The notes beneath the pieces were generated by a model that ran no database searches, was not told the DNA's origin, and saw only the letters and a list, made by a program, of their open reading frames with translations. A stretch of 64,000 bases of DNA from a virus. Positions 3,350 to 62,741 of this stretch are shown here, piece after piece. Position 1 is the first letter of the stretch; every line of letters starts with the position of its first letter. Where the stretch lies: UHGV virus genome UHGV-0468246. One strand, given 5' to 3'. A program made the position numbers and the translations under genes.

Positions 3350-5344
3350 CTACATCCACCCCTGCTGCGTGCGGCTGTAGAAATGGACGTACTGGACGTA
3401 GAAGCATTCGTTGCCCTTCTGCCTGAAGTCGGTCGTGTACTGCGCCTTCTGCGTCTTCCCGTCGCGCTCGTACTCCACGATGCCGTACGCGCCGAAGGTG
3501 CCGGAGCCGTCGGCCACCTTACCGGCAGCGTCGGCCTGCGTCGAAACCCTCACGTTATCGACACCGGCGACGTTGGCCGCCACCGTCTCGATGTCGGAGA
3601 ACTGGATTGTCTGGCCGAACGGGAGCGAGTTGGCCCAGTCTATCACGGCCTTCTCCACCGCCGCCTTTATCGCGTCCCGCGTGTACACGCTGAACATGAG
3701 CGTGAGGTGAACGCCGTACCTGCGTCGGCGCACCTCGTGAACCAGCGTGTTGGCCGTGACCACGCTCTGCTTCCCCACGAGCTTCTGCACCTCGGAGGGC
3801 ACCGTGTTGTAGACGAACGGGATGTTCAGCGGTGTCTCGTTGGTCAAGCTGATGTTCGTGCCAGCCGGAACGAAACTGTTCTTATCGCCGCTGTAGGTGC
3901 CCATAAGCTCCACAGCGTCCATGGCGCGCGAGCTGCCGTCTCGGTTCGCGTAGCCGGAATCGTACAGCATGCGGAACTGCTTGCCTTCTTGCAGGATGAT
4001 GTCCGCGCCGACGTTTATCATGCCGTTGTAAGAGCGCATGACGGGCTGGTAGGACAGGGGTATGTACAGGTTGTTCTCGGTCGGCATCGTCCCGTCGTCG
4101 TGCCGCCAGTTCCCACGGTTCTGCGCCGTGACGAGCTTGTTGAAGTCGATGAACTGAAGGTCGGCGACCGTCTGCCCGCTCTCGCCGTCCACGAACACCT
4201 CGACCGTCTTGATGCCGCCACGGTTCAGGTTGGACAGGTAGTCGTACTCGATGGTGATGAAGTCGCCGATGCTCGCCGCCTTGTAGACGTAGGACACCAG
4301 AACGGTCTGGCCCACGTAGTCGGCGGGGAACGAGGACGTTATCGTGATCTGGTTCCCGGACACCGTGAAGCCCGTCGTGATCGGCGTAACGCCGTCGTTC
4401 GACGTGATGCCGGACACGCGCAGGACGTTGGGCTGCGAAAGCGAGTAGGAGTTGCCCCGCATGACGGGGCCGATAAGCTCGGTCGTCGCCACGTCGTGGA
4501 AGGTTATCACGGCGTTCTCCGCGTCAACGTCGTACTCGCCGCGAGAGTACAGCTTGTCGGTGTCCGCGTTGCGCACCCAGAAGCGGTTCTGCACGTCGAG
4601 CATTTCGGCAACCTCGTCGATTGAGTACGTCGCCGTGTAGTTGCTCTGGACTGCCACCGTCTCCGTCCACGTGCTCTCCTGCCCGATGACCGATGCGCGG
4701 CTGTCGGCGGCATGCGCGAGCGCGAGGCCCAAGTACTGGTCTACGGTGCCGAACTCGCCACGGAATATCGTGTTCACGATTCGGGTGCGGAACTCCGCGT
4801 CCGTCTCCAAGTCGCGCCCGCCGGTCATGGGGAGGTCGTTCGTCACGCCGAAGTAGCCGGTGTAGCTCACGGAGTACGTGACGGTGTTGGCCGCGACGTT
4901 CGCCGCGCTGCCAGCGACGGTGGCGACCACCGGTATCTCCGCCTTGGTGACACCCTTCGCCATCTCCTGATAGCTCGTCGTCTGGAAGTACACGGCGGCC
5001 TGCGTCGCGGTCGCGGGCTTGTAGAACTGCGCGCCGTAGGCTATCGCCTGCACGCTGTCGGCGTTGTCGCGCGTGATGGAGATTGTGCCGCTCGCCGCCT
5101 GCGCCTGCTGGCGCGCGAAGCCGAACATCGCGCCGAAAGCGTCAAGCTCGGAGCCGCTGTAGGAATCGACCGACCACAGGGTGGTCGTTGTGTTCTCGTC
5201 AACCACGAGGCTCGCGAGCTGCGATGCCACGGCGGTGATGATCTTGCGCGTCGGGGTGCCGAGCGTCGTGCTCAACGTGGGGTCTACCGTCGCGAGCTGG
5301 TTTATGATGCTGGCCTCGAATTGCGCCTGCGTTTGTGCTGCCAT
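3350..5344 (-). CDS. baseplate J-like protein (putative)
   Basis: 664-aa ORF immediately downstream of the gp25-like gene, the gene order expected of contractile-tail baseplates. Protein-like composition. Assignment rests on position and size. Confidence 0.45.
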   Translation of the reverse strand: MAAQTQAQFEASIINQLATVDPTLSTTLGTPTRKIITAVASQLASLVVDENTTTTLWSVDSYSGSELDAFGAMFGFARQQAQAASGTISITRDNADSVQAIAYGAQFYKPATATQAAVYFQTTSYQEMAKGVTKAEIPVVATVAGSAANVAANTVTYSVSYTGYFGVTNDLPMTGGRDLETDAEFRTRIVNTIFRGEFGTVDQYLGLALAHAADSRASVIGQESTWTETVAVQSNYTATYSIDEVAEMLDVQNRFWVRNADTDKLYSRGEYDVDAENAVITFHDVATTELIGPVMRGNSYSLSQPNVLRVSGITSNDGVTPITTGFTVSGNQITITSSFPADYVGQTVLVSYVYKAASIGDFITIEYDYLSNLNRGGIKTVEVFVDGESGQTVADLQFIDFNKLVTAQNRGNWRHDDGTMPTENNLYIPLSYQPVMRSYNGMINVGADIILQEGKQFRMLYDSGYANRDGSSRAMDAVELMGTYSGDKNSFVPAGTNISLTNETPLNIPFVYNTVPSEVQKLVGKQSVVTANTLVHEVRRRRYGVHLTLMFSVYTRDAIKAAVEKAVIDWANSLPFGQTIQFSDIETVAANVAGVDNVRVSTQADAAGKVADGSGTFGAYGIVEYERDGKTQKAQYTTDFRQKGNECFYVQYVHFYSRTQQGWM

Positions 5345-5859: not shown

Positions 5860-7743
5860 TTACGCGTCGCGGGAAACGGAGAACACGAACAGCTCGCTCG
5901 CAAGCTCGGTGAGCATGCTTTCCGCGAGAACGTCTATCCCCATGTACACGTGCCTGTCGCGGACGAGGACGGGTGCGTTCACGACCACATTGACGATGTT
6001 TTCAGCGCTCTGCACCTGATCGTAGCCCGTCGCCCTCCCCTTTCCCATGACGGTGAGCAGCCCGGTTGCCCCAAGCCCTATGTAGAACGAGCGGTCGTAG
6101 TCCGAAACCAAGCCGCCGTCGAGCGTGACCGAGTAGATGTACTCGCGGATGTTCGCTGCGCTCTCGCCGAACAGGCCGACGAACGGGTACGGTCGCATCT
6201 CCACGGTGTCGTCCACGTAGTATCCGCACCGACCGACGAGGCAGACGTACTTCCCGCCGCTCTCGATTATTTTATCGACAACCGCAATCGCGTCGGCCTC
6301 CATGTTCGACACCATGAACAGGCATGTGGCGGCGTTCCGGCTGTACTTGTCCTCATGCTTCAGATCGTCATCGAAGAGAACCCTCATGCGGTTGCTCGTC
6401 TTGTCGATCATGAGCGATGCCATGGAGTACCACGCCTCCATGTACGACACGTTGGCCTCGGTCTGCCAGTTCGCCGCCTGAAGCGAGCGCATGGACAGCG
6501 CCATGCCGTTGTAATCGGAGGCGTTGCGCTCCGATATGCGGTACTTGTCCATCGCGGCCCACAGCTCGATCACCTTCTCGTCCGATAGAAGGCGGTAGTC
6601 GGAGTAGTCGCCCACGACGACCTGCGAGGCGTTGTACTTCGCGAGCACGGAGAACATTCCGTCGGGCTGCGTTATGTCGGGCACGTCGAGCACGAATACC
6701 GGCTTGCACGCCTCCCCGATGCGGCAGCACACGGCGGTCAACGCCTCGAAGCTGCGAAGCTCGCTCTGCTCGTCGGTGCTCTTCTGGTACTTCATGGGCA
6801 TGCCCGCATAGGCCCAGCCGTACGTGCCGAAGTCGGACGCTATGCCGCTCCTCGCATACCCGGCACCGTCGGAATCGACTAGGCAGTAGGCGTAGTCGGG
6901 AACTATTGCCGTGAGGGCCGTCTGCCCTATCTTGGACTTGATCGAGACGCACAGCGCGCGCTGCTCCTCCGCGAGGAACGAGCGCCACAGCAGGTAGTCG
7001 TCGTCCACCCCGTTGATGACGTAGCGGTCGCTGGGCATGACGCGGTTCCGCTCGTAGAAGTTCCTGTCAGCCGTCGCGTTGCGGTCGTATCGCAGACCGG
7101 CAAGCCCGATGCCGTCGAGGCAGTACCCGTACACGTCGGTTCCGTGCATCGTGCGCAGCTCGTCGATGAGGGCGGTGAGCGCGTCCTTCGCCCCGGACGG
7201 CGAAAACATGCGCGAGTACTCGCCCGTGCTCGACCTCTGCTGGTACGGATGGAAGTCGGGGTTCGTCGTGTCGCTCCACAACTCTGACGACACGGCGCAC
7301 GTCACGGCCACGTTGCGGTGCCTGAAACGGTCGAGCAGCTGCTTCAGAACCGGGTTCTTGCCCAGCCCGTAATCGGCGGCGACCTCGCTGTCCCAGTAAA
7401 CCATGCCGTCCTTTGCGACGGTCAGAAGCACCTCGTCGAAGCCTGCGGACGCTATGTCCTCGACCACGACCCGCTCCTTGCCCACGCAGTCCGCCGCGTT
7501 CAGGCGGATGGCGTACCGCATCACGTTCGTCTCGCCGTTGGTGACGCGGTTCCACAGCTTCCACTTGTTCGAGGCGATGCGCTGGATGAGCCACACTTCG
7601 TTGACCTTCGGCGGCTGGTCGAAGCCCGACAGGTCGAACGATATGGTGAGCTTGCCGGTCTGCGTCATGCATGTTATTCCGTCGCTGCCAACGTTGGTTA
7701 TCATCGCGGGCAGCATCTCGTTCTTGTTCATGTTCCTCTGCAT
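5860..7743 (-). CDS. hypothetical virion protein (627 aa)
   Basis: Long ORF with protein-like composition in the tail/baseplate block. Contains the embedded 16-mer CTCGATTATTTTATCG, which encodes DKIIE. Confidence 0.5.
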   Translation of the reverse strand: MQRNMNKNEMLPAMITNVGSDGITCMTQTGKLTISFDLSGFDQPPKVNEVWLIQRIASNKWKLWNRVTNGETNVMRYAIRLNAADCVGKERVVVEDIASAGFDEVLLTVAKDGMVYWDSEVAADYGLGKNPVLKQLLDRFRHRNVAVTCAVSSELWSDTTNPDFHPYQQRSSTGEYSRMFSPSGAKDALTALIDELRTMHGTDVYGYCLDGIGLAGLRYDRNATADRNFYERNRVMPSDRYVINGVDDDYLLWRSFLAEEQRALCVSIKSKIGQTALTAIVPDYAYCLVDSDGAGYARSGIASDFGTYGWAYAGMPMKYQKSTDEQSELRSFEALTAVCCRIGEACKPVFVLDVPDITQPDGMFSVLAKYNASQVVVGDYSDYRLLSDEKVIELWAAMDKYRISERNASDYNGMALSMRSLQAANWQTEANVSYMEAWYSMASLMIDKTSNRMRVLFDDDLKHEDKYSRNAATCLFMVSNMEADAIAVVDKIIESGGKYVCLVGRCGYYVDDTVEMRPYPFVGLFGESAANIREYIYSVTLDGGLVSDYDRSFYIGLGATGLLTVMGKGRATGYDQVQSAENIVNVVVNAPVLVRDRHVYMGIDVLAESMLTELASELFVFSVSRDA

Positions 7744-9199: not shown

Positions 9200-10301
9200 A
9201 TGCGATGCGCTTCTCCATCATGGGGACGGAACCGCGCGTGTACACCCGCTCGAACGCCTCCGTTGCCCATGGCAGATCGGTGATCGCCTTGAACTGGTCG
9301 AACGTCATCTTCTCCGCTATCCACGCCTGCGCGCCGTTCGGATACGTGTAAACTCCGTTGCCGGTGAAAGCGTCGAACTGGGCGGGTGCCTCGCTGACGA
9401 AGAACAAGAGCTGCGCCTGTATGTCCGTCCATTCGGTGCCGCGCTCCGACGCGAAGGCGCACAGGTCGCTGAACCGGCCAGAACCCGCCTCCCACTGAAG
9501 CAGCCCGCGTCCGGGGCCTCCGCCTCCTTGGCACGCCGCCGGGTCTACGCCGCTCTCCTGCTGCATGTTCCCGATCACGCCAGCCGCCGCCTGCTTGCTG
9601 AAGCCTTGGCTCATGCAGAAGTTCCACACCACCTCCGCGTTGCTGTTGCCGCTGAAGTCGGCAGCTCCGCCCGACGACGAGCCTTCGCTTGCCCCTCCTA
9701 TGGCGGGGCCTGACGTTTGCAGCATCTTGTAGATTTGATTCACCATGTCCGCACCTTGGGTGTCCGAGAGCTTCGCTTGGTACATGGATGTCGCCCACTC
9801 GATCACGTCGCTCGGTATCTGGCCCACGCTGATCTTCGACGCGGGCCAGTCCGCGACCGCTTGGAGCACCTTGACCCCGCTCTTCCAATAGCCGCCGTCC
9901 TGCTCCGTATCGTCCTGCCCACGATAGACGAGCCAGAAGCTCTCCTCCAAGCCCGCGTCCCAGTAGAGCTTCTGCAAGCGGTACAGGACATCGCGCCCCC
10001 TTATCTCAACCTCGTCGGTGTTGAGGTTGTAGTAAGGGGCCTTCGTGACGTAGCCCGCGAGGACTTGGTAGCGGTCTGCCTTGGAGAGGTATATGGCGAT
10101 CTTGTCCATGGGCATGAGAAGCCCGGTGTACTTTTCCCCCTCGTTCTTCAGGTGCAGGATGAAGTCGCTCGAATCGTCCGTCTTCAGGTTGACGGTGAAC
10201 CGCGTGATGTCGTCCGAGAGGTCGTACGCAGTCGTCCTCCCGTCGCGCGTCAGCGACACGTTGGCCTCGACCATGGGGGTGTATGTAAGGATAGCCGTCA
10301 T
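9165..10301 (-). CDS. tail-associated cell-wall hydrolase, paralog 3 (shared N-domain plus phage-tail-lysozyme-like C-domain)
   Basis: The N-terminus MTAILTYTPMV and an internal GADMVNQIY motif are shared with two paralogs. The C-terminal part (GVIGNMQQESGVDPAA...GLLQWE) resembles the phage tail lysozyme domain. A TGgTAGAAT extended -10 sits 7 nt before the ATG at 10301, which suggests a leaderless transcript. Confidence 0.55.
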   Translation of the reverse strand: MTAILTYTPMVEANVSLTRDGRTTAYDLSDDITRFTVNLKTDDSSDFILHLKNEGEKYTGLLMPMDKIAIYLSKADRYQVLAGYVTKAPYYNLNTDEVEIRGRDVLYRLQKLYWDAGLEESFWLVYRGQDDTEQDGGYWKSGVKVLQAVADWPASKISVGQIPSDVIEWATSMYQAKLSDTQGADMVNQIYKMLQTSGPAIGGASEGSSSGGAADFSGNSNAEVVWNFCMSQGFSKQAAAGVIGNMQQESGVDPAACQGGGGPGRGLLQWEAGSGRFSDLCAFASERGTEWTDIQAQLLFFVSEAPAQFDAFTGNGVYTYPNGAQAWIAEKMTFDQFKAITDLPWATEAFERVYTRGSVPMMEKRIAYARSAYDQFGG

Positions 10302-10350
10302 GGCTGACATTCTACCATTCGCGGCGCTCCCCCTCCATGCAGCTCGGCAC

Positions 10351-10368
10351 CTCGATTATTTAATCGAG
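10351..10368. promoter_or_regulatory. near-palindromic motif CTCGATTATTTAATCGAG (copy 1)
   Basis: Read directly. It contains the TAA stop of 10356..11063. On the minus strand it lies about 36 nt upstream of the TGgTAGAAT extended -10 that drives 9165..10301. Confidence 0.45.
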
Positions 10369-11063
10369 CGGAGACTGTAGAAGTAGAGCCACTGCGTGGC
10401 GTTAAGCTCCTCATCGGAATAAGGGCGCTGCGAGTTGTCGCCGCTCTTGGGGTCGCGGATGCGAACGTCGCCGTCGAAGCTCTGCCACAGCAGCACGACG
10501 TGGCCGCCGTAGCAGTTGCCCTGGCCGCCGAGCTGACCGGTCATACCGGCGAACACCACCGCGCCGTCCGCGCACTCCGCCAGCGCCTCGTCGAGCGTCC
10601 AGTAGATTTCGGAGCCGTCGAGGCCGTAGGCCTCCTCCGCGTACGCGCAGAACTTGCCGGGGTCGTTGACCCCATCGGTCAGGCACGTGTCGCCAACGAC
10701 CGCCGCGAGGTCGCGCGGGTAGGTGATCTGGTTCGTAAGGTACTCTATCGCCATGGCGGCGCACACGAGGCCGCACCCGGCCTGCGAGATCGACGAGCCT
10801 GCGTACTCGATTCCTCCCCACTGCGGGTCGTCCTGAAGGTACAGCGGCATGTTGTAGCCCGTCGGTATGGCCCTCTGGGCCTCTGTGGCGGGCGCTGGGA
10901 GGTCGTTAGCGTCGAAGTCGAGATAGGGTTCATCTTCGAGCCAAACGGGGGTTCTGGGAGGCTCTGCGTCCGTCTGTGGCACATCGGAGAAAACCGAATA
11001 GCCGATGATCGCCGCGAACAGCGCGGCGACCGCCAGACATTTTATGTAGCCGTTTCGTCTCAT
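10356..11063 (-). CDS. secreted papain-like (peptidase C39-like) cysteine peptidase
   Basis: Hydrophobic N-terminal signal/TM segment. Q...C (SQAGCGLVCAAMAIEY)...H arrangement typical of the C39-like fold. The stop codon TAA lies inside the palindromic motif at 10351-10368. Confidence 0.45.
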   Translation of the reverse strand: MRRNGYIKCLAVAALFAAIIGYSVFSDVPQTDAEPPRTPVWLEDEPYLDFDANDLPAPATEAQRAIPTGYNMPLYLQDDPQWGGIEYAGSSISQAGCGLVCAAMAIEYLTNQITYPRDLAAVVGDTCLTDGVNDPGKFCAYAEEAYGLDGSEIYWTLDEALAECADGAVVFAGMTGQLGGQGNCYGGHVVLLWQSFDGDVRIRDPKSGDNSQRPYSDEELNATQWLYFYSLRSIK

Positions 11064-21589: not shown

Positions 21590-21955
21590 CTACACTCCCT
21601 GCTGCTCCATCATCCGCATAAGGCCCTCCATGGTGTCGGACGTGATGCACACGTCGTCCGCCTCCTGCGACTTGCGCCATTGGCGCATCTCAATCGACTT
21701 CTGGTAGCTGTCCGGGTGCTCGTAGGAAAGCCAGAAGTCCTTGTCCTCCCTATTATCGAGGAGTTCGCGCGCCCGTTCAAGACGCTTGGCGATGTCGAGC
21801 GCCGTGATCTGCACGACGTTCAGGTCTCCTTCGAGCATCCGCCGATGATAGGCCTGCTGGCACTGCGAGAAGGCGAGCGCGACACCTCGCGGCAGCTCGT
21901 CCTCGCTGCCAGTCAGGCCGATTATTTTTTTAGCGCGCCCGCCACCTCGGCGCAC
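21590..21955 (-). CDS. tail assembly chaperone, frameshift extension (gpT-like segment)
   Basis: A -1 frame ORF overlapping the 3' end of the upstream chaperone. Entered by ribosomal slippage at A_AAA_AAA. Confidence 0.5.
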   Translation of the reverse strand: MRRGGGRAKKIIGLTGSEDELPRGVALAFSQCQQAYHRRMLEGDLNVVQITALDIAKRLERARELLDNREDKDFWLSYEHPDSYQKSIEMRQWRKSQEADDVCITSDTMEGLMRMMEQQGV

Positions 21956-29150: not shown

Positions 29151-29231
29151 GGCTTTCTCCTTACTTGCGGGTTGACTTTCCCTTGGTTGCAAAGTCTACC
29201 TCAAAACGGGAAGACGTGCGACATGCGCGGT

Positions 29232-29249
29232 GTCGATTAAATAATCGAG
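29232..29249. promoter_or_regulatory. near-palindromic motif GTCGATTAAATAATCGAG (copy 2)
   Basis: Read directly. On the minus strand it lies about 33 nt upstream of a TAGACT -10 and about 80 nt upstream of the ATG at 29150. Confidence 0.45.
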
Positions 29250-32275: not shown

Positions 32276-34678
32276 CTATGCACCCAATGCCGCATTGGAG
32301 CCGGTGCGCCTGCCGACCTCCTCGGTTACGGCGCTCTTCGCGCCCTCCAACGTGTCCTCGTCGCCCTCGGCCATCTTCTCGCCGGACGCGCCGCCGCTCG
32401 TCATGTCGATCAGCTCCCAGTGGTACTTTCCGGGCGTGGAGTAGTCGTAATCGACCTCCATCTCGTACGGGTGCTCGAACTTGGCCCACACGCCGTCCTC
32501 CTCTTCCCAGCCGTCGTCGGCGGTCTTCGCGGAGGCCGTGCGGCCCAGAGCGTCGTCGATGGCGGCCTGCGCGCTCGGGAAGTAGCCTTGGCGCGGATAG
32601 CCCTTCACGCCCACGTCTTCGGTGACCCAGTACCAGTTGTAGGTTCCGTCCGCCTCGACTTCGGCGTTCACGATCTTGCCGTCGCCCGTGAAGCGCCACG
32701 GACTGCCGAGAGCGCCGCCGCCCATGGTCTCGAACTTCGTCCAGCCGTCGGGCGCGGGCGTTGAGCGCCCGGTGTCGTGCCCGTCGCTCGCCGCCGTCTT
32801 GGCGGGGAGGCGCTGGGCGTTCTGCGCCAGCCACTCGTCCGCGAGCTTCGCGCAGTACTCCATGGCAGGCTCGATCATGCAGAAGCCGTCCTCCGGGTTG
32901 TCGTACTTCGCCAGCAGCTGGTCGTACGGCATGCTCTCGACCTCGGCGTAGGGCAGGCCGTCGATTGAGACGGTCTTGACGCGGGCGATCTCCAAGCTCG
33001 GCTCGTACGCGCCGTCCAGCGTTCCGTCGTAATAGGCGTAGCAGCCCTTCGCGTCGTAGTAGAGGTTTCCGGGAAGGTTCGTCCAGCCAGCCCACGACAC
33101 GTTGACGGTGGAGCCATCGCTTCCGACGTACTTGTACCAGTAGTCTTCGCCCGCATGCTCCCATCCTCCCATCTGCGCGGCCTTTTCAGCCGTGGTGACG
33201 CGCACGGTCTTGGGAGGCGCTGCGGAAACGACCTCGTTGTACGTCATCTTCTCGAACCGCTCCGCCTGACGCAGGGCGTAGTCCATGTTCGGCATCATGC
33301 CGAACTCGTGCACCTGCCCCTTGTCGGAGATGACGGTGAGCTGCGGCTTGGAACCGATCTGCTGTTGGACGACACCGATGGTAGCCCTCTTGTCCTTCGT
33401 CTGGCCTTCGTAGAAGGCGTAGAACGGCAGCTCCTCGTCATGGTAGCTCACCTCCGGGGCGAGGCCGCCGCTGGCCGTCTTGCGGGAGCCGACGGAAGAC
33501 CTGACGGAAACGTCGATGTCCTTCCCGTCGTTGTACTCCCTATCGAAGGAGACCGTGTATTCGTCCCAAATGGAAAAGTCGTCGAAAGGCGTTTCCTTGC
33601 CGGAGACCATCTGGGATATTTTGCGCGTCATCTCGCCGTCAAGCTCAACGTCGCTCCGCATGTGCACGTTGATGCCGTCAAACACCTGCCCGTAATTGAA
33701 CTCGGACGACACCTTCCTCGATGCCGTGCGGCGCGCGGAGCGCTTGCGCCCTGCGGAGCGAACGGCCCTGTTCTCGGCGCTCTTCTTCTCCATGTCGTCG
33801 TCCTTTCCCTCGGTCTCCCGCTCGACCTCTCCGATGCCTTCGTTGAACTCGTCCTCCTCGGACGGGTCGAGGTCGATGAGCAGCTTGTGAAGCTCTCCGG
33901 CGTGCTCCTTCTCCTCGTCGCGTATGTCCTCCAAGCCCTTGCGCACGGGGTCGCCCTCGGGCAGGAGGTCGATGTAGGCGCTGTACATCAGGATAGCGTC
34001 GTTCTCCGCCTTCATGTTGTCGCGGATGGCGCGCTTCTTCAGCTCCTCCTCCGAAAGCTCCTTGGGGTCAACCGGCATCTGCTGCGCGGTCTTCCCCTCC
34101 TTCCATTCGCCCTCGATGCCGTCGGCTTCGAGCTTCGCCACGACGGCATCGTACAGCTCGCCGCCGAGCGCGTCTTGGACGATCTGCCAGTAGCGGTTGT
34201 CGTGCTCCTCCATGGCGGTGCCGTGGTCGTATCCGGCCAAGTCCCCCGCCACGAGCCAGTCAACGACGGCCTGAACCGTGCGGTCGTCCGGCATGGACGC
34301 GCTCTTGGGCATCCTGCCGCTCCCTGAGACCTCCTGAAGCTCCTCGCCGTACTCTGGGAGGGTTATGGTCGTATCGCCCGTCAGATCGGCTCCTGCGGCC
34401 TCGGAGGCGGCGTTGCGCCCCATGCACAGGGGCAGCTTGCCGCTGCCCTCGATCAGCTTGCAGAACTCGCGGGCCTCGTCCTCGTCAGCGCACACCTTGA
34501 AGCGCGCGGCCTCGTTCGGCCTGTCCTTCTCGAAGACACCCGCCCAAACCGTGTCGCCGGTCTTGTCGATGGAGTAGTTGAACGCCTCGCCGCACGATGT
34601 CAGCACGCGGGGCATCTCCTCCTTCCACCGCAGGGCGGTCTTCGTGCCCTGCTCGATTATTTTATCGGGTGTGCCCAT
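32276..34678 (-). CDS. large multi-domain protein (800 aa) with ferritin/rubrerythrin-like EE..H segment
   Basis: The segment AILMYSAYIDLL...DIRDEEKEHAGELHKLL resembles a diiron-helix motif. Contains the embedded motif variant encoding DKIIE near the N-terminus. Acidic. Confidence 0.45.
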   Translation of the reverse strand: MGTPDKIIEQGTKTALRWKEEMPRVLTSCGEAFNYSIDKTGDTVWAGVFEKDRPNEAARFKVCADEDEAREFCKLIEGSGKLPLCMGRNAASEAAGADLTGDTTITLPEYGEELQEVSGSGRMPKSASMPDDRTVQAVVDWLVAGDLAGYDHGTAMEEHDNRYWQIVQDALGGELYDAVVAKLEADGIEGEWKEGKTAQQMPVDPKELSEEELKKRAIRDNMKAENDAILMYSAYIDLLPEGDPVRKGLEDIRDEEKEHAGELHKLLIDLDPSEEDEFNEGIGEVERETEGKDDDMEKKSAENRAVRSAGRKRSARRTASRKVSSEFNYGQVFDGINVHMRSDVELDGEMTRKISQMVSGKETPFDDFSIWDEYTVSFDREYNDGKDIDVSVRSSVGSRKTASGGLAPEVSYHDEELPFYAFYEGQTKDKRATIGVVQQQIGSKPQLTVISDKGQVHEFGMMPNMDYALRQAERFEKMTYNEVVSAAPPKTVRVTTAEKAAQMGGWEHAGEDYWYKYVGSDGSTVNVSWAGWTNLPGNLYYDAKGCYAYYDGTLDGAYEPSLEIARVKTVSIDGLPYAEVESMPYDQLLAKYDNPEDGFCMIEPAMEYCAKLADEWLAQNAQRLPAKTAASDGHDTGRSTPAPDGWTKFETMGGGALGSPWRFTGDGKIVNAEVEADGTYNWYWVTEDVGVKGYPRQGYFPSAQAAIDDALGRTASAKTADDGWEEEDGVWAKFEHPYEMEVDYDYSTPGKYHWELIDMTSGGASGEKMAEGDEDTLEGAKSAVTEEVGRRTGSNAALGA

Positions 34679-36401: not shown

Positions 36402-37313
36402 TTACTCGCCGAAGACGCAGGCGGTAAAATCGAACGTGTATTCCGTGCCGTCCGTCTTGCTCTCGGCATCCTCGGCGCTCGCGTACAGCGTCGCCGTGAA
36501 CTTCTTCACATCCTTCTGAATGGCGGCGACGAGAATGATGGCTCCCGGCCCGTCGCCCGTCTGGCCGAACACAAGCGTCTTCTCGCCGCTGCCGAGCGTC
36601 TGGCGGACGAACGCGGAGCCGTCAGCCGCCTTCATCTCGAACGCGGCGTAGTAGCCCGTTCTGTCCTCCTCTGCGGCGGAGAACTCCGTCCAGTCGGGAA
36701 CGTGGTTGACGGTTCCACCGAAGACGACGTTCGTGCCTTCGACTCTCGCGGTGAGGCCGCTCGTCAGCTCGCCTAGGTTCTTACCGGCGAAGTTCGTTCC
36801 GGCGAAGTCCGTCTTCCCTATCGTCAGCGCCGCTGGCTGCGGCGGCTCCGCGACGAGGGCTTCCGGCGCTTCTGAAACGGTTATCTTCGCCTGACCGACC
36901 GACATCAGCATGCACACCGGGTTCCCGTCGCCGACCGTCAAGCGACCGTTGGCATCCGATTCGAGCAGCACGCGGCCTCCCGACTTCAACGTCGCCTCCG
37001 CCGCCTCCCAGTCAGCATCCTTGTCGATGACGGAGCGCGACACGTCCGCCATCGCCCCGCCTCCGAAGACGAGAACGCCAGCGCTGGGAACCTCCCAGAC
37101 ATTGTGCGTCCTGTACGTCGAGAACAGCCCCAAGGGGCGCTCCGCCCCGGTTGACGGCCTCACCCCGTCAGGCCCCATGCAGGCGACCATGCCCGGCATG
37201 ATGTCGTGCCTCGAAGGGTCAACGGGCCAATCTTGGAACGTCGCCTGCGTCTTCGTGAACAATGGTTTCAGGGTTCGATGCTCCTGCGTTGCGAAATTTG
37301 ACACTATAGCCAT
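36402..37313 (-). CDS. head decoration-like protein, long paralog (303 aa)
   Basis: The N-terminus MAIVSNFATQEHRTLKPLFTKTQATFQ parallels that of 30354..30863. Confidence 0.4.
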   Translation of the reverse strand: MAIVSNFATQEHRTLKPLFTKTQATFQDWPVDPSRHDIMPGMVACMGPDGVRPSTGAERPLGLFSTYRTHNVWEVPSAGVLVFGGGAMADVSRSVIDKDADWEAAEATLKSGGRVLLESDANGRLTVGDGNPVCMLMSVGQAKITVSEAPEALVAEPPQPAALTIGKTDFAGTNFAGKNLGELTSGLTARVEGTNVVFGGTVNHVPDWTEFSAAEEDRTGYYAAFEMKAADGSAFVRQTLGSGEKTLVFGQTGDGPGAIILVAAIQKDVKKFTATLYASAEDAESKTDGTEYTFDFTACVFGE

Positions 37314-40300: not shown

Positions 40301-40417
40301 GAACCCGTCGCCGCGATCATCGTACTCGAACGAGCCGAGGGCCTTGCGCGCGGCGACGCGCCCGGTCGTCCCGAAGCTCGTTCCGATTATGGAGCAGTTG
40401 GAGAACTTAACGAACAT
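37304..40417 (-). CDS. prohead protease-like protein with long acidic C-terminal region, interrupted by a LAGLIDADG intein
   Basis: The N-extein PVYVNHSNTNLDRARGYIIDA resembles the HK97-family protease His block. The intein runs from CFVPGTHITMSNG to VHN, followed by CETT, and contains LLGYYLAEGNF. Confidence 0.5.
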   Translation of the reverse strand: MFVKFSNCSIIGTSFGTTGRVAARKALGSFEYDDRGDGFLYVSVRACTADVPNLNFDMLPHEELKTAYRTFVGKPVYVNHSNTNLDRARGYIIDAVYHDEDPEDRWIEILMEMDEVTFPRLCALIRSGDIDTVSMGLNCFVPGTHITMSNGTVKNIEDVAVGDEVITHLGNVRRVADTMASLHSGIVYEVRSYGSKRPMVLTDEHPVWVRRMKNDAMRTIRESRIAHDGDNAEHSCICGRSFKSHRSLAAHVREAAKNGVDGHGYQPDFEGWVIASDLEVGDYVLDPKPVRTSRGGNRVFARLLGYYLAEGNFGYDKKLNIGVGAPAFVEWTFCDSETDYHDEVMALCSELGYKAVGPYIKRGAATIRCNSPELANMMLEHGGKYSHGKRISDEAMRWDDECLGDLVEAYLNGDGHYIDDHRVAYSTVSKDLAYQIFSICTQLGIKMSKPIARSSERISDIAKHTRYVSYGDRSEEQKKMAMCYVDEQGTWRRIDRIRVLPYTGMVYNFEVEEDHSYIAEGYAVHNCETTTCSVCGNVAEQPAQFCNHIKQKGREFDGVLAFEICNGIAFFEESWVYDPADPTATVQALEAEAKTAKVAAKEREFGPDNFYIETEANFAEVEDRPQGAPDYTSESGSEYWYFPDGVIRGSDHWGYGVGGCNWYLDGINRQMYGGELYGYARWSDFENTENYDYIFDKKLNDVVESYVGSGADGTLADHMFGTMQWRHTDMNDEVYDEARTLLRVTAAEKSKSDYAYTPTDNPSDWKLDISDKDHAAAAKAALGKGYRGNKVEIPSDDRQAVIDKVNAACRRFGIEPFGEGKEGSADDASGFASDFIEEYDSLGLSFDSYDELAAEVWSAVEEAADADEEFYADALQEIAGHYKLADNMVNKLRIPEEVDMQNSDRVCPICGSPDFDGIYCDVCEYVEYAEGFGDIDTEEAQENKELRKDLDDAEEPDAEVTEDAEEEYAEDTDDARVAARLFDVPDDQGTVLAALADAGYAEGIDYDLASGGKIASYSASLDELMRGGVIGKESRWL

Positions 40418-53887: not shown

Positions 53888-54210
53888 GCGAACACCTCCT
53901 CGTCCGCCATGCCGCCGCTGGCGACGTGAACGCCCATGATTCCCTTCACGTTGTCGGAGACTATGGCGTTGATCTCATCGACGGCCTGCGGGTCGTCGGC
54001 GTGCGAGGATGCCATCGACCGGAACTTCTCCCTAGCCGCCTCCTCGCGGTTGGCAGCGTCGGCGGACTTGACTTCGAGCGCCTGAATCGTCTCCGCGAGC
54101 GACGCTATCCTGCCCTCGCACTCCGAGCACTCGTCGAACGCCTCGCGCCATTCCTGCATGACCTTGGTGATCGCGCTCCGCGAAGCGCCGTCAAGACCGG
54201 GCATCGTCAC
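53884..54210 (-). CDS. hypothetical protein (108 aa)
   Basis: Minus-strand ORF with ATGA-type overlap to its neighbour. Confidence 0.35.
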   Translation of the reverse strand: MTMPGLDGASRSAITKVMQEWREAFDECSECEGRIASLAETIQALEVKSADAANREEAAREKFRSMASSHADDPQAVDEINAIVSDNVKGIMGVHVASGGMADEEVFA

Positions 54211-54848
54211 ACCGCCGGTGTCGTAGTCGAGAAGTCGTACACGGAGGCGAGCGATGGTTCTATCAGCGTCTCGGCACCGTCGTCTTCGAGGGTCGCCGCG
54301 ACCGCTCCGGGCTTCGCCTGCTCCTGCTTCCGGTTCTGCTGCGCCGCGCGCTTCAGCGGCTTAGGCCCGGAAGATGCCCTCTGCGGGGCGCTGACGGCCT
54401 TCTGGGGGGCGCTGGGCTGCTTTTCGGGTTCGGGTGCCGCCTCGTCCGCTTCGGGGGCGCAGAACAGCTTTGAGGGCTTCACGGCTATCTTCGCCGCCGC
54501 CTCGCTCCTTCCCCTGCTCTCCGCAGCCACCTCCTCGATGCCGCCGGGAATCTTCACCTCGCGCTTGCGGGAGGGCTTCTGCCCCTCCGCCGGTGCGGCC
54601 TTCTTGGCCGGTGCGGCCTTCTCGGAGTTCGCTGCGCCGCCCTGCGAGAGGAAGCCCTTCACGACCGCCTCGAACTGCTCGCGGTGCCTCGCGCACACGT
54701 CGTCGAGGAGCATGTACCTCTCGCCGTCGATAAGAACCTCGATTGCGGCGGGCTTGTCCTCGCCGTACTCTTCCAGAATCGCCTCGGTCTCCTCCGGGGA
54801 TATGACATCCCCGCAACCGGGCACGTCGCACACCAACGCTATGCCCAT
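54207..54848 (-). CDS. hypothetical protein with N-terminal Cys pair and Ala/Pro/Lys-rich linker (213 aa)
   Basis: AAAGGAGATGG RBS. The TGaTACAAT -10 and the palindromic motif sit directly upstream. Confidence 0.4.
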   Translation of the reverse strand: MGIALVCDVPGCGDVISPEETEAILEEYGEDKPAAIEVLIDGERYMLLDDVCARHREQFEAVVKGFLSQGGAANSEKAAPAKKAAPAEGQKPSRKREVKIPGGIEEVAAESRGRSEAAAKIAVKPSKLFCAPEADEAAPEPEKQPSAPQKAVSAPQRASSGPKPLKRAAQQNRKQEQAKPGAVAATLEDDGAETLIEPSLASVYDFSTTTPAV

Positions 54849-54870
54849 GAGCTTCCATCTCCTTTGAACG

Positions 54871-54888
54871 CTCGATTATTTAATCGAC
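54871..54888. promoter_or_regulatory. near-palindromic motif CTCGATTATTTAATCGAC (copy 3), immediately downstream of a TGaTACAAT extended -10 (operator-like position)
   Basis: Read directly. Confidence 0.45.
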
Positions 54889-54894
54889 ATTGTA

Positions 54895-55812
54895 TCACAG
54901 CCACTTGCCCTCGGTTGAGAATCTTTGCCAGTCGCCGGAGGCGAGCACGTTGCCGAGCGTCGGGCACCAGTCGCCGCGCCTGTTGTCCATGAGCCACTTC
55001 CGGAAGTCGGGGTTGCGAAGCGCCCGCAGAACGTCCTCCCTCCAACGCCCAACGCCGTCGCCCGCAGCCTCTGCCGCCTCGGCCACGATCTCCCGCTCGC
55101 GCTCCAAGAAGCTCTCGTTCTGGTACCGCAGCGGAACGTCCGGGTACGCCTCCCTGAAGTCCCGATGCGCAGCGTCGATTAAATAATCGAGTTCTGCGGT
55201 GCCCTGCCCTTGGGTGTCTGCGGAGATTTTCCGCGCGCGCGCGCGTTCATTCGTTCCTCCATCATGTCCCTCTCCGTCAGGAGTGGTTTGGTTGTTACAG
55301 GTTGAAGGGGTAGTCTCTGTAACGTAGTCTATGTATATGTCCCCTCTTTTTTGAGGAGACCCTGTCATCATTTTTGATGGGAGGGGGGTGTCCGGGTATG
55401 TAAGCTCGAAGATGCGCTCGACGTTGGGTTTGATGAACAGCACGTTGTTCAAAACCGTGTCGTCGGTTTCGATTGTCCTGAACACTCTGGTGATCGCTCC
55501 GAGCTTTTCCAAGAGGACGACGGCGCGCATGGCGGACTGCTTGGAGATGCCGAACTGGTCGGAGAGCTGCTTGTACGAACGTTGGAGCAAGTCCCCTTTG
55601 AACTTCCTCTGGAAGCCCACGGTCGCGCCCGTGCGCTCATCGCGCATCTCGGTCGGACGATACCAGTAAACTACGTCCGAAAGAACCATGATGGCGTTGA
55701 GGTTCGGCTTCCCCGTATCGCCCACGACCGTTTTGAACCAAGAGCCGGGGATGACGTTCCCTGTGATGTTGAGCTGGCCGATTGCCTCGACCTCCGGCGT
55801 TGTCTCTCTCAT
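54895..55812 (-). CDS. replication initiator-like protein (N-terminal winged-helix DNA-binding domain, low-complexity linker, C-terminal domain)
   Basis: 305-aa continuous ORF. The internal region 55200-55400 is AT-richer and carries repeats, which may be an ori embedded in the gene. Confidence 0.4.
   Translation of the reverse strand: MRETTPEVEAIGQLNITGNVIPGSWFKTVVGDTGKPNLNAIMVLSDVVYWYRPTEMRDERTGATVGFQRKFKGDLLQRSYKQLSDQFGISKQSAMRAVVLLEKLGAITRVFRTIETDDTVLNNVLFIKPNVERIFELTYPDTPLPSKMMTGSPQKRGDIYIDYVTETTPSTCNNQTTPDGEGHDGGTNERARARKISADTQGQGTAELDYLIDAAHRDFREAYPDVPLRYQNESFLEREREIVAEAAEAAGDGVGRWREDVLRALRNPDFRKWLMDNRRGDWCPTLGNVLASGDWQRFSTEGKWL
55174..55191. promoter_or_regulatory. near-palindromic motif GTCGATTAAATAATCGAG (copy 4), inside the replication gene next to the ori-like region
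   Basis: Read directly. It encodes LDYLID in the gene's frame. Confidence 0.4.
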
Positions 55813-55822
55813 GCCCCCTCCC

Positions 55823-56122
55823 CTAAATGCCCTTTGGGCCGACAGCTGCGTACCATTCGATTGACCTGCCGCCGTAACTCCCTGTTTTCACAAGACCGGC
55901 GCGAATGAGCTTGTCGAGCGCTTCGTCGATCTCCGTCTGCGAAGAGAATGTGAGAAGCGAGGCGAAGAGGCTAGGGTCACCCTGCGTCCAATAAAGGCCG
56001 TCGTGGAAGTGCTCGCCGTTCGCGGCGCTCCGCTCGCATCGGGCGGCGATCTTCTCGTAAACGACTGCTGCCGTTACGCCGACTTTCACCGCGACGTTTT
56101 GGTCGAACGACTGTAGTGCCAT
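55823..56122 (-). CDS. small winged-helix/HTH-type DNA-binding protein (putative)
   Basis: 99 aa. The segment VYEKIAARCERSAANGEHFHDGLYWTQ fits a helix-turn-helix pattern. It lies upstream of the replication gene. Confidence 0.4.
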   Translation of the reverse strand: MALQSFDQNVAVKVGVTAAVVYEKIAARCERSAANGEHFHDGLYWTQGDPSLFASLLTFSSQTEIDEALDKLIRAGLVKTGSYGGRSIEWYAAVGPKGI

Positions 56123-56977: not shown

Positions 56978-58096
56978 CTAGATGGCGACGTAGCCCTTTT
57001 CGTCGATCATGGCGTAGAACTCCTGCACCGGGAGCCACTTGGCGGCACCCTCGTTGAACATGGAGGCAGCGCTGGCGGTGTCTGCGTACTGCACCATGCC
57101 CTCGCCCTTCGCCATGACCTCTATCACGTTGCCGTCGTCGCCTTGGTACTGGCTCCCCTCGACGGCAACGTCGGCGTACACGTCGTGGCGGGCGCTCCTG
57201 ATGATGTCGCCGCGCTCGATCTGCCCGACGAGGGCGGCTGCGGTCGCGGTGAACAGCGCGCCGCTGTCGAGCTGCACGCCGCTCACGGAGTTGCCGGAGA
57301 CGGACGCTATGCGCATCTTGGAACCGGTGTGGGCCGACGCGTACACGTCGCCCTCGGCGATGCCTATGTAGCGGTCGTACCACGTCTGGCAGTGGTCTAG
57401 CGCCTCCGCGTACCCCTGCGCCGAACCGCTCGACACCTCGATGCCCTCCAACGTCACGCACCACGACACCCCGTCAAGCCCGAACGAGATGTGCGATTCT
57501 ATGCCGGGGCTGAACTCCATCGTGTCGGTCACCGGCTCGACGGCCATCGTGCCCATCGAATGGTCTACCGAGAAGGACGTTCCGCACTCGTTGCACATGA
57601 AGGTGTCTGCGGGAGCGTCCTCGTACACCATGGTGGTGTTGGCGGAGGAGCACATGGGGCAGCACGTCGGGTCTTGCGGCCCCATGAGGTATTCGATGCT
57701 GCCGATGTCCCCTGCGGTGACGTAGCGCCCCGCCACGTCCATCTGGGAGGCGTAGAGCCTAGATGCGAGCGTGGACGGGCGCTTCGCGAGCGCGCTGAAC
57801 CGGTACTTCCTGCCGTCCTTCAGGGCGTAGCGCTCGTCCGCCTCCTCGAACACAGCGTCGAGGTCGGCGAAGTCCTCCTCCGTCGCCTGAACGATCTCCA
57901 AATCGTCGTCGAAGACGACCTCCGGCTCCGTGAACGGTGCCACAAGCTCCTCGATCTCGTCGCGGCACAGAAGCCGTTCGTACTCCACGATGGCATCGGA
58001 TATGGCCTCGCGGGCCTCGGCCTCGGCCTCGTCCATCGTGTACACGTCCTCCACGCCTTCGGCGACCTGCGCGAGAACGTCTTGCCTGTGTCCCAT
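56978..58096 (-). CDS. hypothetical protein with Zn-ribbon (CCPMC...CNEC), acidic N-terminus
   Basis: GAAGGAG RBS. A TGcTAAAAT extended -10 and the palindromic motif lie upstream. Confidence 0.45.
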   Translation of the reverse strand: MGHRQDVLAQVAEGVEDVYTMDEAEAEAREAISDAIVEYERLLCRDEIEELVAPFTEPEVVFDDDLEIVQATEEDFADLDAVFEEADERYALKDGRKYRFSALAKRPSTLASRLYASQMDVAGRYVTAGDIGSIEYLMGPQDPTCCPMCSSANTTMVYEDAPADTFMCNECGTSFSVDHSMGTMAVEPVTDTMEFSPGIESHISFGLDGVSWCVTLEGIEVSSGSAQGYAEALDHCQTWYDRYIGIAEGDVYASAHTGSKMRIASVSGNSVSGVQLDSGALFTATAAALVGQIERGDIIRSARHDVYADVAVEGSQYQGDDGNVIEVMAKGEGMVQYADTASAASMFNEGAAKWLPVQEFYAMIDEKGYVAI

Positions 58097-58175
58097 AATC
58101 ACTGCTCCTTCATGCGCATGCGGGTTCTGCTTGAGATTTTAGCAGCAAAAGAAAAGCGGCGCACCCCAGTAGGCC

Positions 58176-58193
58176 CTCGATTAAATAATCGAG
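58176..58193. promoter_or_regulatory. near-palindromic motif CTCGATTAAATAATCGAG (copy 5), in the loop of a larger GC-rich inverted repeat followed by a T-rich tract
   Basis: Read directly. The flanks GCGGCGCACCCC and GGGGCGCGCCGC pair. On the minus strand the structure is followed by TTTTCTTTT and then TGcTAAAAT. Confidence 0.45.
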
Positions 58194-58224
58194 CCTGCGG
58201 GGCGCGCCGCCTCGTCCCTCGGAA

Positions 58225-58482: not shown

Positions 58483-58494
58483 CTCCTTCTCGCT

Positions 58495-60971: not shown

Positions 60972-61147
60972 TCCGCCGCCCCGTTCTCCGGGCATTCCGC
61001 GCAGTCGCGCCAAGGCGACACGTGGCCGCCCTTCAGCGCGCAGGTGTAGCTGACCGTCTCGACCGCCCTGCCGGGCCGATGGCCGTGCTCGGCGTAGTGC
61101 TCGCACTCCACCTCGACCCTCTCGAACGAGGAGCCTATTTCTTCCAC
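60959..61147 (-). CDS. small Cys/His-rich protein (62 aa)
   Basis: GTG start with GGAGGAGGAGG RBS. Not Arg-rich. Confidence 0.3.
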   Translation of the reverse strand: MEEIGSSFERVEVECEHYAEHGHRPGRAVETVSYTCALKGGHVSPWRDCAECPENGAAECAR

Positions 61148-62358
61148 GGCGGCACCGCCTCCTCCTCCGCCTTGAAGTTGTACACCGGTCGCATGACCTG
61201 CACAACGTCCACCGTGTCGGCCACGCTCTCGATTATTTTATCGGCATCCTTGTACGCGCCGGGTGCCTCGTCGAGCGTCGAGGAGCCTATGCACGAAGAC
61301 CAAACGCCGTCCATCTGCTCGCGGTAGTCCTTGACGCGGAGGCTCCGCTTCGCCTTCGCGCGGGACATCTTGCGCCCGGCCCCGTGCGGGGCAGACCAGT
61401 TGTAGTCCTCGTTGCCCTTCCCGATGCCGATGACGCAGCCCTTCGCCATGTTGAGCGGGATGATGACCTTCTGGCCCTCGTACGCCGCTATAGCGCCCTT
61501 GCGGATGATGCGGTTCGCCGTATCGACGTAGTTGTGCGTCGAGGAGACCATATCGTCCCAGCCGCCCCATCCCATGCCGGAAAATATCTCGCGCGCCATC
61601 GTCTCGCGGTTGGCCGACGCGTACATCTGGCAGAAGTCGCAGTCGTGAAGGTACTCTTCGAGCAGCCTGCCTTCGGCCCATGCCAGCTCCTTGCCGACCG
61701 AATGCTCGCGCTGTATGCCGTTCATCGTTTGCAGCACGTAGCCGATAAGCTCCTGCTTGCCGTCGGCCTTCAGGCGCTCTATGAAGCCCTCCTTCAGGTA
61801 CCCGGTCGATTGGATGCCGACGCGGGAAAGCTCCTCGTGCGCCGCCTTCTGGTACACGCCGCACACCTGCGAGCCGAGGTTGCGCGAGCCGGAATGGATG
61901 ACCAGCCACAGGTTGCCGTCCATGTCCTCGTCGATCTCGATGAAGTGGTTGCCGCCTCCGAGCGTCCCCACCGACCTCTTGATTCGGTCGAGGTCGTGCA
62001 GGCGGTCGATGCAGGCGAGGTCGTCCCATCCGAACCAGAAGTCCTGCTGCTCGTTTTCGCGCCAGCTCATGCCGGACGGTATGCGCTCGCGCACCACGTC
62101 GTCGAGCGTCTGGAAGTCCACGCGCCTCTTGCCCACGAGGTAGGCGTTCACGCCGCACGATATGTCAACGCCGACGACGTTGGGTATGACGGCATCGCCG
62201 AACGTTGACGTGAGGCCCACCACGCATCCGATGCCAGCGTGGGCATCGGGCATGACGCGTATGCGCTGCTCCTTGAACGGTCGGAGCGCTGCAAGCTCCT
62301 CGACCTGCCTGCGCGCCTCGTCCTCGATCTCCTCCGCGTAGATTTTAACGTCTTCCAT
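61135..62358 (-). CDS. rtcB: RtcB-family RNA 3'-phosphate ligase
   Basis: The conserved blocks PDAHAGIG, GGGNHF, HSGSRNLG and HGAGR are spread along the length. Real start MEDVKIYAEE. Contains the embedded motif variant encoding DKIIE. Confidence 0.7.
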   Translation of the reverse strand: MEDVKIYAEEIEDEARRQVEELAALRPFKEQRIRVMPDAHAGIGCVVGLTSTFGDAVIPNVVGVDISCGVNAYLVGKRRVDFQTLDDVVRERIPSGMSWRENEQQDFWFGWDDLACIDRLHDLDRIKRSVGTLGGGNHFIEIDEDMDGNLWLVIHSGSRNLGSQVCGVYQKAAHEELSRVGIQSTGYLKEGFIERLKADGKQELIGYVLQTMNGIQREHSVGKELAWAEGRLLEEYLHDCDFCQMYASANRETMAREIFSGMGWGGWDDMVSSTHNYVDTANRIIRKGAIAAYEGQKVIIPLNMAKGCVIGIGKGNEDYNWSAPHGAGRKMSRAKAKRSLRVKDYREQMDGVWSSCIGSSTLDEAPGAYKDADKIIESVADTVDVVQVMRPVYNFKAEEEAVPPWKK

Positions 62359-62360
62359 CT

Positions 62361-62741
62361 TCAGCCTTCCTCCTCGCAGTAATAGCGCCAGCGCTCCTCG
62401 ATGCACTCGACGCTGACGACCTTCGGCGACAGGCGGTAGTCCTCCATGTCATCCATGTAGGCGACCGCGAGCGGCCTCCTTCCGAAAAGCTCCTTCGACA
62501 TGACCGCCGTCAGCATGAGGCCGTACGGCACGCCGCCCTCCTTGCCGACGGCGTGCGAGCAGAACGCGTCGAGCAGCCGTTCAACGTCCCTCTTGAAGAA
62601 CGTCGCCTCCTCCATGGGCAGCGACATGCCGAACATCGGGGAGTACCCGGCTCCGGGCCTCGCCTCGACGCAGTACATGAACGCGAGGTCTCCCGTCTCC
62701 GTCGCCTGAAGCTCTACGCACGCGCGCAGCCTCCGCTCCAT
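62361..62741 (-). CDS. hypothetical protein (126 aa)
   Basis: GGAAGGAGG RBS. A TGgTAGACT extended -10 lies about 30 nt upstream. Confidence 0.4.
   Translation of the reverse strand: MERRLRACVELQATETGDLAFMYCVEARPGAGYSPMFGMSLPMEEATFFKRDVERLLDAFCSHAVGKEGGVPYGLMLTAVMSKELFGRRPLAVAYMDDMEDYRLSPKVVSVECIEERWRYYCEEEG

Follow-up and report, generated by a model that had tools for sequence, protein, structure and literature searches.

An 18-bp dyad-symmetric motif between and inside genes of large Eggerthella phages, a candidate phage operator

Background

Why would three unrelated genes of one phage carry the same 16 nucleotides in the same reading frame? The question arises in a 64,000-nt stretch of the virus genome UHGV-0468246 (hereafter the window), where a preliminary description, made from the letters alone, had noted an identical 16-mer within the genes for a 627-aa virion protein, an 800-aa multi-domain protein and RtcB, each time encoding the pentapeptide DKIIE. 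We find that the 16-mer is one form of an 18-bp palindromic motif dispersed between and within genes of this phage and its relatives, and we give a probability of roughly 0.55 to this motif being an operator at which a dimeric DNA-binding protein, encoded by the phage, acts on transcription in a direction-dependent way.

The window is 98–99.5% identical to the Eggerthella phage LE2-3 (MW679026, 111,961 bp, with a myovirus-type gene set), whose plus strand corresponds to the minus strand of the window. The window has a GC content of 63% and carries nearly all its genes on the minus strand, and LE2-3 is 94.1% coding and 5.9% non-coding. In protein searches the homologues of the 627-aa protein formed a graded series between 99% and 30% identity and those of RtcB a similar one; DNA was fetched for eleven homologues of the two proteins. 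The genomes compared comprised a high- to mid-GC group (the window, LE2-3, L091, L092, L095, L239–L241 and L096, the last at 53% GC) and a low-GC group (L089/L097, L093, L094 and L116/L118, with L089 at 41% GC). Protein-based searches of IMG/VR yielded near-identical contigs only. Motif scans of the same database gave mostly single chance matches, with two exceptions: 3300045988_116257, near-identical to the window, and 3300045988_115635, a low-GC relative. PDB sequence searches with two conserved neighbouring proteins returned nothing useful, and the paper on the Eggerthella phage phiKL11 concerns unrelated 44-kb phages.

Results

The exact 16-mer CTCGATTATTTTATCG occurs three times in the window, on the plus strand at 6262–6277, 34652–34667 and 61228–61243, at the loci where it had first been noticed. 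The 18-nt ranges originally given for these copies have correct coordinates, with only 16 nt identical and the last two bases reading AC, GG and GC. Five further copies differ by one mismatch (CTCGATTATTTAATCG; 10351 and 54871 on the plus strand, 29234, 55176 and 58178 on the minus strand), giving a total of eight copies of an 18-bp palindromic motif. At up to two mismatches, dinucleotide-preserving shuffles gave an expectation of 0.02 matches, and eight matches were reached in none of 100 shuffles; allowing up to three mismatches to the degenerate consensus still returned only the same eight loci. The copies, and the hairpin that carries one of them, are as follows.

6262..6279, minus strand: motif copy with AAAA centre, coding strand GTCGATAAAATAATCGAG, within the 627-aa baseplate-region gene 5860..7743 (minus), encoding VDKIIE
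10351..10368, minus strand: motif copy, perfect 18-bp palindrome CTCGATTAAATAATCGAG, containing the TAA stop of gene 10356..11063 (minus)
29232..29249, minus strand: motif copy with TATT centre, CTCGATTATTTAATCGAC, in a 225-nt gap downstream of the major capsid gene
34652..34669, minus strand: motif copy with AAAA centre, CCCGATAAAATAATCGAG, within the 800-aa rubrerythrin-like gene 32276..34678 (minus) from codon 4 onward, encoding PDKIIE
54871..54888, minus strand: motif copy with TAAA centre, GTCGATTAAATAATCGAG, directly after the extended −10 TGATACAAT
55174..55191, minus strand: motif copy with TATT centre, CTCGATTATTTAATCGAC, within the replication-initiator-like gene 54895..55812 (minus), encoding LDYLID
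58153..58213, minus strand: terminator-like hairpin with the next copy at its apex, followed by CUUUUCUUUU (−57.2 kcal/mol, z = −4.3)
58176..58193, minus strand: motif copy, perfect palindrome CTCGATTATTTAATCGAG, at the apex of the long terminator-like hairpin and upstream of gene 56978..58102 (minus)
61228..61245, minus strand: motif copy with AAAA centre, GCCGATAAAATAATCGAG, within the RtcB gene 61135..62406 (minus), encoding ADKIIE

The complete LE2-3 genome contains 16 copies of NNCGAT-W-A-WW-TAATCGAG on the coding strand, and the family consensus is (C/G)(T/C)CGAT-W-A-WW-TAATCGAG, an 18-bp dyad-symmetric sequence. Positions 3–6, 8 and 11–17 of these copies are invariant with one exception, the dyad half-sites are CGATTA and TAATCG, and the 2-bp centre is used both ways (TT and AA). 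When LE2-3 was scanned with a position weight matrix, 16 copies scored at least 26.6 bits and the interval from 12 to 26 bits was empty. By centre, six copies are TATT, four TAAA and six AAAA, the last being the form of the 16-mer. This AAAA form had been taken for a TAA-free derivative of the intergenic palindrome. The TAAA form in the DKIIE frame would indeed read GAT TAA, but the AAAA form has TAA in two frames itself and is also intergenic in LE2-3 (13429, 97649 and 109206); since it moreover replaces the TAAA form at an orthologous intergenic site of L095, we regard it as a normal variant and not as a derivative specific to open reading frames (ORFs). A suggested link to the tail-chaperone slippery site did not hold: CTAAAAAAATAATCGG (21917–21933) shares a 9-mer only, differs at 5 positions and gave no match at up to three mismatches.

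Rfam returned no match for the motif, whose own stem of 6–8 bp, with only three G-C pairs and without a U-tract, does not have the make-up of an intrinsic terminator or structured RNA. A scan of 185,579 species for the perfect 18-mer gave 21 scattered, chance-level matches, none of them in Coriobacteriia and none in Eggerthella genomes, so the motif is not a host operator.

We then considered the reading frames of the intragenic copies. On the coding (minus) strand the three AAAA copies read GAT AAA ATA ATC GAG in frame, placing DKIIE at residue 490 of the 627-aa protein, residue 5 of the 800-aa protein and residue 389 of RtcB. The number of DKIIE peptides expected in ~19,000 codons is 0.006, and given the peptide, the probability of these codons is 0.002 per copy. 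AAA (7.9% of Lys codons) is rare, as had been claimed, and so is GAT (16% of Asp codons); ATA, called rare along with AAA, makes up 30% of Ile codons and is not. On the coding strand the AAAA form can be read through in the DKIIE frame only, the other two containing TAA, so that the repeated pentapeptide is forced and adds no coincidence of its own. The frames of the TATT form allow DYLIE or RLFNR, and the TAAA form allows RLNNR only. All three intragenic AAAA copies lie in the orientation with a single open frame, the reverse orientation having three; this result would have a probability of (1/4)^3 = 0.016 if orientation were irrelevant. The fourth intragenic copy, at 55174–55191, lies in a gene matching the replication-initiation PHROG 270 (E = 3e-14).

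Conservation in relatives separates the nucleotide motif from the peptide. Wherever DKIIE was retained, its codons were identical (7/7 relatives examined, 77–99% protein identity), with synonymous change in the flanking codons; these relatives were LE2-3, L091 and L092 for the 627-aa gene, and LE2-3, L241, L239, L240 and L095 for RtcB. In this comparison of nucleotide motif with synonymous variation, which had been proposed as a check, DKIIE was never seen with other codons in the relatives examined. In the 627-aa gene the motif is nucleotide-identical in L091 and L092 (82–85% amino acid identity), and the 6262 copy lies in an 18-nt invariant run, tied for third-longest of the gene. In L089 (70% identity) the motif becomes TCAATAAAATAATTGAG, with codons GTC AAT AAA ATA ATT GAG, and in relatives at 66% and 56% both motif and peptide are gone.

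In RtcB, C GAT AAA ATA ATC GAG is kept in five lineages (77–100% amino acid identity) amid many synonymous changes in neighbouring codons, and the motif falls within the second-longest invariant run of the gene. One of five GAT codons for conserved Asp residues and one of two AAA codons are invariant, and both lie inside the motif. The motif is missing from relatives at 70% and 61% identity, which read SSIVE and QYILD at this place. The RtcB family pattern here is [DE][ED]I[IV]x, from which few changes would have sufficed to create a site. No indel was found at the motif in the RtcB or 627-aa alignments, and insertion of a 15-nt cassette was rejected.

For the 800-aa protein the homologues obtained were variants at 97–100% identity only; PDKIIE is invariant in 120 population variants, in which four others of the first 21 codons vary. 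Phages of this group are common in metagenomes, the rubrerythrin-like gene (32276–34678, minus strand) being present on more than 100 metagenome contigs, with length variants of 800, 876 and 948 aa. An alternative ATG with a GGAGG box lies at its codon 22, 21 codons downstream of the annotated ATG. Taken with the intergenic copies, the identical codons and synonymous flanks support the earlier proposal that the intragenic motif is a nucleotide-level element tolerated inside ORFs and not a trace of protein homology.

Every copy in the high- and mid-GC genomes has CGAT...ATCG, and nearly every copy in the low-GC genomes has CAAT...ATTG, where the motif reads CTCAAT...ATTGAG. The intragenic copy of the 627-aa gene in L089 follows the same half-site switch. 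A uniform, symmetric change over dispersed copies suggests one trans-acting reader that contacts both halves alike, and it argues against a constraint on structure only, such as a hairpin. The motif is also intergenic in places in all relatives. L097 has six tandem copies, spaced 22–25 bp apart, ahead of its homologue of gene 56978..58102. The low-GC relatives also pair the motif with another palindrome, the SOS/Cheo-box-like GAACAnnTGTTC, at a distance of 3 nt. These pairs or arrays are found at the following places.

L097, 13291–13450 and 15985–16060: motif with GAACAnnTGTTC, pairs or arrays
L116, 5566–5600, 11526–11580 and 14123–14160: motif with GAACAnnTGTTC, pairs or arrays
L118, 2387–2420: motif with GAACAnnTGTTC, pair or array

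Neither GAACAnnTGTTC nor a tandem array is present in the window.

The copies are concentrated at gene boundaries. In LE2-3, 11 of the 16 lie in or touch the small non-coding fraction, the stop codon of the upstream gene falls inside three, and five are followed directly by AAGGAG and, 13–14 nt later, a start codon. Between the initiator-like gene and its downstream neighbour, a copy (window 54871, LE2-3 30751) is present in all five genomes examined. A TACAAT or TATAAT −10 precedes it every time, 2–15 nt away (2, 10 or 15), and in four of the five it stands 7–8 nt before the Shine-Dalgarno sequence (SD). In the window this copy is 7 nt before the AAGGAG of gene 54207..54848 (minus), and the TGA of TGATACAAT doubles as the stop of the initiator-like gene. 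This copy and the one inside that gene (55174..55191, kept in LE2-3, L095 and L096) are exact inverted partners, 285 nt apart. A copy upstream of the homologue of gene 56978..58102 is likewise present in all these genomes. In the window this is the copy at 58176..58193, the only one to sit within a larger terminator hairpin; it is followed by the −10-like TGcTAAAAT at 58141..58136, and the arrangement is kept in L095, L096 and L240.

Positions relative to promoter-like sequences were varied. The LE2-3 copies at 30751 and 109206 follow extended −10s (TGATACAAT and TGaTAGTCT, the latter copy starting 7 nt after), and at 97649 TAAAAT stands at the expected −10 of a repeated AT-rich promoter box; TANNNT, as TAAAAT, is found only in the AAAA variant. 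Window copies 58176, 29232 and 10351 are centred ~54–58 nt upstream of the predicted starts of −10-like hexamers, which for 29232..29249 is TAGACT at 29198..29193 and for 10351..10368 is TGgTAGAAT, 36 nt downstream of the copy and itself placed for a leaderless start at 10301. A consensus promoter scan (window 54000–62500) found no sigma-70/sigma-A promoter on the three copies covered, and consensus promoter and terminator scanning was uninformative.

Every one of the 16 LE2-3 copies carries the strict half-site on the coding strand, with TAATCGAG complete in 14 and its final G changed to C in two. Of these 16, 14 retain GAG at the right flank and four have CTC at the left, and all six AAAA copies are on the coding strand.

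No obvious reader emerged among the phage proteins scanned. Pfam and PHROG scans of ~60 proteins detected no sigma factor, RNA polymerase, helix-turn-helix (HTH) regulator or repressor except an initiator-like pair. The initiator-like protein is an attractive candidate, since one motif copy lies in the linker-coding region of its own gene, but the initiators of L095 and L096 have a different, non-alignable N-terminal domain (HTH_36) with the same motif. A partition or packaging role, which had also been suggested, found no support. The palindrome that a parS-type site would need is there; ParA and ParB are not annotated in LE2-3 and did not appear among the ~60 proteins scanned. No integrase is annotated in LE2-3.

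Several neighbouring features were recorded alongside. The product of gene 54207–54848 (minus), downstream of the conserved site, combines, from N- to C-terminus, a Cys/His-containing domain, a middle region rich in Lys, Pro and Ala (PAKKAAPA) and a conserved IEPSxASxxDxS tail, with no database match; it could be DNA-binding or replisome-associated. An Lsr2-like reading of it was set aside, the resemblance being by eye only and without database support. The AT-rich box TCTTAATTCTTCTTTTAA is repeated at window ~62770–62812 (minus) and at LE2-3 97606–97640 and 109150–109200, and TGnTAG(A/T)CT follows ~35 nt after the box begins; the primase gene has the TAAAAT of the motif in place of that −10. 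These boxes are probably a set of strong host-type promoters. At window 10299–10317 (minus), TGgTAGAAT lies 7 nt before an ATG that matches the annotated start of a tail gene in LE2-3, which suggests a leaderless transcript. A 25-nt inverted repeat, 92% complementary with a 16-nt spacer (window 56162–56227), lies in the gap upstream of two replication-initiator-like genes and could be a terminator or an origin-related palindrome.

Hint/intein domains and a match to a head-maturation-protease PHROG were seen in the 1037-aa product of window gene 37304–40417 (minus), a protein listed as 'tRNA synthetase' in the LE2-3 annotation; GC drops to 0.548 at 38–40 kb, which suggests an intein or homing-endonuclease insertion there. 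Extra NUMOD/HNH homing-endonuclease genes lie among the baseplate genes of L091 (4746–5588) and L092 (6226–6951, 11447–12016 and 13520–13635), and the first of those in L092 has an AAAA-centre motif copy on its antisense strand. L097 has a tyrosine recombinase gene (4266–5138) that adjoins opposite-strand genes and a large tail-fibre gene and has no annotated equivalent in LE2-3; it could be an integrase or a tail-fibre invertase.

Discussion

From the observed motif, with its non-randomness, placement, conservation and half-site co-variation, we infer protein binding, a dimeric reader and an effect on transcription. A sequence-specific protein encoded by the phage, probably a homodimer, would recognise the 18-bp dyad sites in double-stranded DNA. 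The sites lie at gene boundaries, over stop codons, abutting the next SD, or on or just downstream of a sigma-A-like −10, with a few inside genes. Once bound, the protein would block initiation from promoters that a site overlaps and impede read-through, or at certain sites aid RNA polymerase, and the outcome would be the timing of gene-block expression. Since the downstream half TAATCGAG is strict and the upstream half looser, the effect is probably direction-dependent. The intragenic copies would be genuine sites under DNA-level selection, restricted to places where the peptide read from a stop-free frame can be accommodated; that peptide is DKIIE with the AAAA centre and DYLI(E/D) with the TATT centre.

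Several observations weigh against the operator reading. The scans brought up no binding protein. The switch from CG to CA/TG is essentially one phylogenetic event and runs along AT mutation pressure, and the conservation in L091 and L092 is by itself at most moderately unusual and not statistically exceptional, each pairwise comparison having about a dozen invariant runs of at least 17 nt. Position relative to putative promoters is heterogeneous (at −10, at +1, at about −55, or with none nearby). A simple symmetric operator would not usually show such strand asymmetry, which would fit a promoter or RNA-level role too, and the orientation rule is itself broken in relatives (L092 6549, minus; L093 10, minus; the L097 array).

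Among known systems a close parallel is with the stoperators of Cluster A mycobacteriophages (L5 gp71-type), asymmetric 13–14-bp sites bound by the monomeric immunity repressor of a temperate phage (PMC9283540). Like stoperators, the motif occurs in many near-identical copies genome-wide at promoters and short intergenic gaps (16 in LE2-3, 11 of them in or touching non-coding DNA) and overlaps start or stop codons. The orientation of stoperators correlates with the direction of transcription; that of the motif does so in LE2-3, with exceptions among the relatives. Unlike stoperators, it is 18 bp long and dyad-symmetric, with some copies deep in ORFs, and LE2-3 combines the lack of an annotated integrase with the lack of a recognised repressor among the ~60 proteins.

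The best-surviving alternative, which we nevertheless hold to be unlikely, is a phage-specific (middle or late) promoter that host RNA polymerase would use together with some phage factor not recognised here; transcription would start at or just past the 3' end of the motif, and the intragenic copies would act as internal promoters. It would account for the coding-strand placement of the strict half in every LE2-3 copy, and the near-invariant, all-or-none sequence resembles phage promoter sets. Five copies stand directly before SD and ATG and others 20–80 nt upstream of starts. The RtcB copy (61228..61245) is ~80 nt upstream of the overlapping next gene, and in a low-GC relative a copy lies just past the RtcB stop, upstream of the next gene. 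The WWTAAT core is −10-like, and the TAAAAT of the AAAA form takes the −10 position of the primase promoter box. An asymmetric promoter reader, however, does not predict a symmetric half-site change, and both centre orientations are used. The conserved site already has a canonical −10 upstream, at variable distance, and where the SD abuts the motif a leader of only 0–8 nt would be left. The 56-kb structural module holds only four of the 16 copies, the ~60 proteins scanned include no recognised sigma factor or RNA polymerase, and the relatives have tandem arrays and opposite-orientation copies.

We consider it improbable that the motif acts in mRNA, as an AU-rich hairpin or single-stranded element 5' of ribosome-binding sites that serves as a translational repressor site or a processing or stability signal. 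The coding-strand bias and the position directly upstream of the SD would suit such an element, GC-rich hairpins lie directly before the copies at LE2-3 13429 and 100845 and L097 4221 and 13436, and the mixed copies of L097 mostly show G..T, a combination that permits wobble pairing on the coding strand. As an RNA, though, the stem is only 4–6 bp and, being almost all A-U in the low-GC relatives, too weak; the outer pairs are not kept, the left flank varies, and base-pair identity is uniform per genome rather than freely varying. At 54871 the predicted start is inside the motif, leaving the left arm untranscribed, and for one intragenic copy the nearest start codon is 470 nt away; the lack of an Rfam match points the same way.

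Repeats upstream of translation starts also recall the SAS and ESAS repeats of Cluster K mycobacteriophages (PMC3203893). The SAS contains the SD and lies 3–7 bp from the start codon, and the ESAS has arms with a variable spacer, its inverted repeats having a subcluster-specific consensus and being thought to bind protein, with function unknown (PMC3203893). Our motif shares with them the conserved position upstream of translation starts and, sometimes, an upstream stop codon inside the repeat. It differs from SAS in lying upstream of a separate AAGGAG, its 3' end 13–26 nt or more from the ATG, and from both in being a compact palindrome with a fixed 2-bp centre that is present in all genome modules.

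A somewhat fainter prospect is that the copies are iterons of a replication initiator, with an origin around the initiator-like genes as with lambda ori in gene O. The lambda origin has four adjacent iterons at one locus inside the initiator gene, each an 18–19-bp dyad site with an A/T-rich centre. The motif, too, is an 18-bp dyad, centred on an A/T tract. One copy falls within the linker-coding part of the O-like initiator gene, another 285 nt downstream and a third 3 kb away (58176), and the six tandem copies of L097 are 1.5 kb from its initiator gene. Against this, thirteen other LE2-3 copies are single and spread genome-wide, and the tandem array is seen only in L097 and not in the window. 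The N-terminal DNA-binding domain of the initiator, which would set specificity, is exchangeable (L095, L096) without change of the motif.

It is very unlikely that the motif marks the site of a phage nicking or site-specific nuclease, leaving strand-specific interruptions as in T5 or phiKMV-like phages: the all-or-none sequence, the strand bias and the many HNH and GIY-YIG genes of the lineage would fit, but intergenic placement by the SD, tandem arrays and a second operator-like palindrome in relatives are all unexpected. Chance, or a shared structural peptide, is already refuted by the data, for although the RtcB peptide fits its family pattern, the expected numbers (0.006 peptides and 0.02 16-mers) are far below those found, the codons are identical wherever the peptide is kept, the peptide is lost in distant homologues, and the motif is intergenic elsewhere.

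Conclusions

The operator reading can be carried further, to a tentative picture that we think doubtful as a whole. An apparently virulent lineage of large myoviruses may use one 18-bp dyad site, with an unrecognised reader family, as a genome-wide, direction-dependent roadblock or timing signal; site and reader may have switched specificity together (CG to CA/TG) between low- and high-GC hosts; and copies may have been selected inside essential ORFs (RtcB and the baseplate protein), where they would have fixed rare codons and the forced pentapeptide. Boundaries of gene blocks are marked by the motif, which also offers a first regulatory handle on uncharacterised ~112-kb phages of the gut bacterium Eggerthella lenta and on their low-GC relatives. 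The matched versions CGAT...ATCG and CAAT...ATTG are usable to find the cognate DNA-binding protein by co-variation, and for phage engineering, recoding or deleting sites would be likely to alter gene timing. Within genes the motif is a case of dual coding, in which a DNA signal overrides codon preference.

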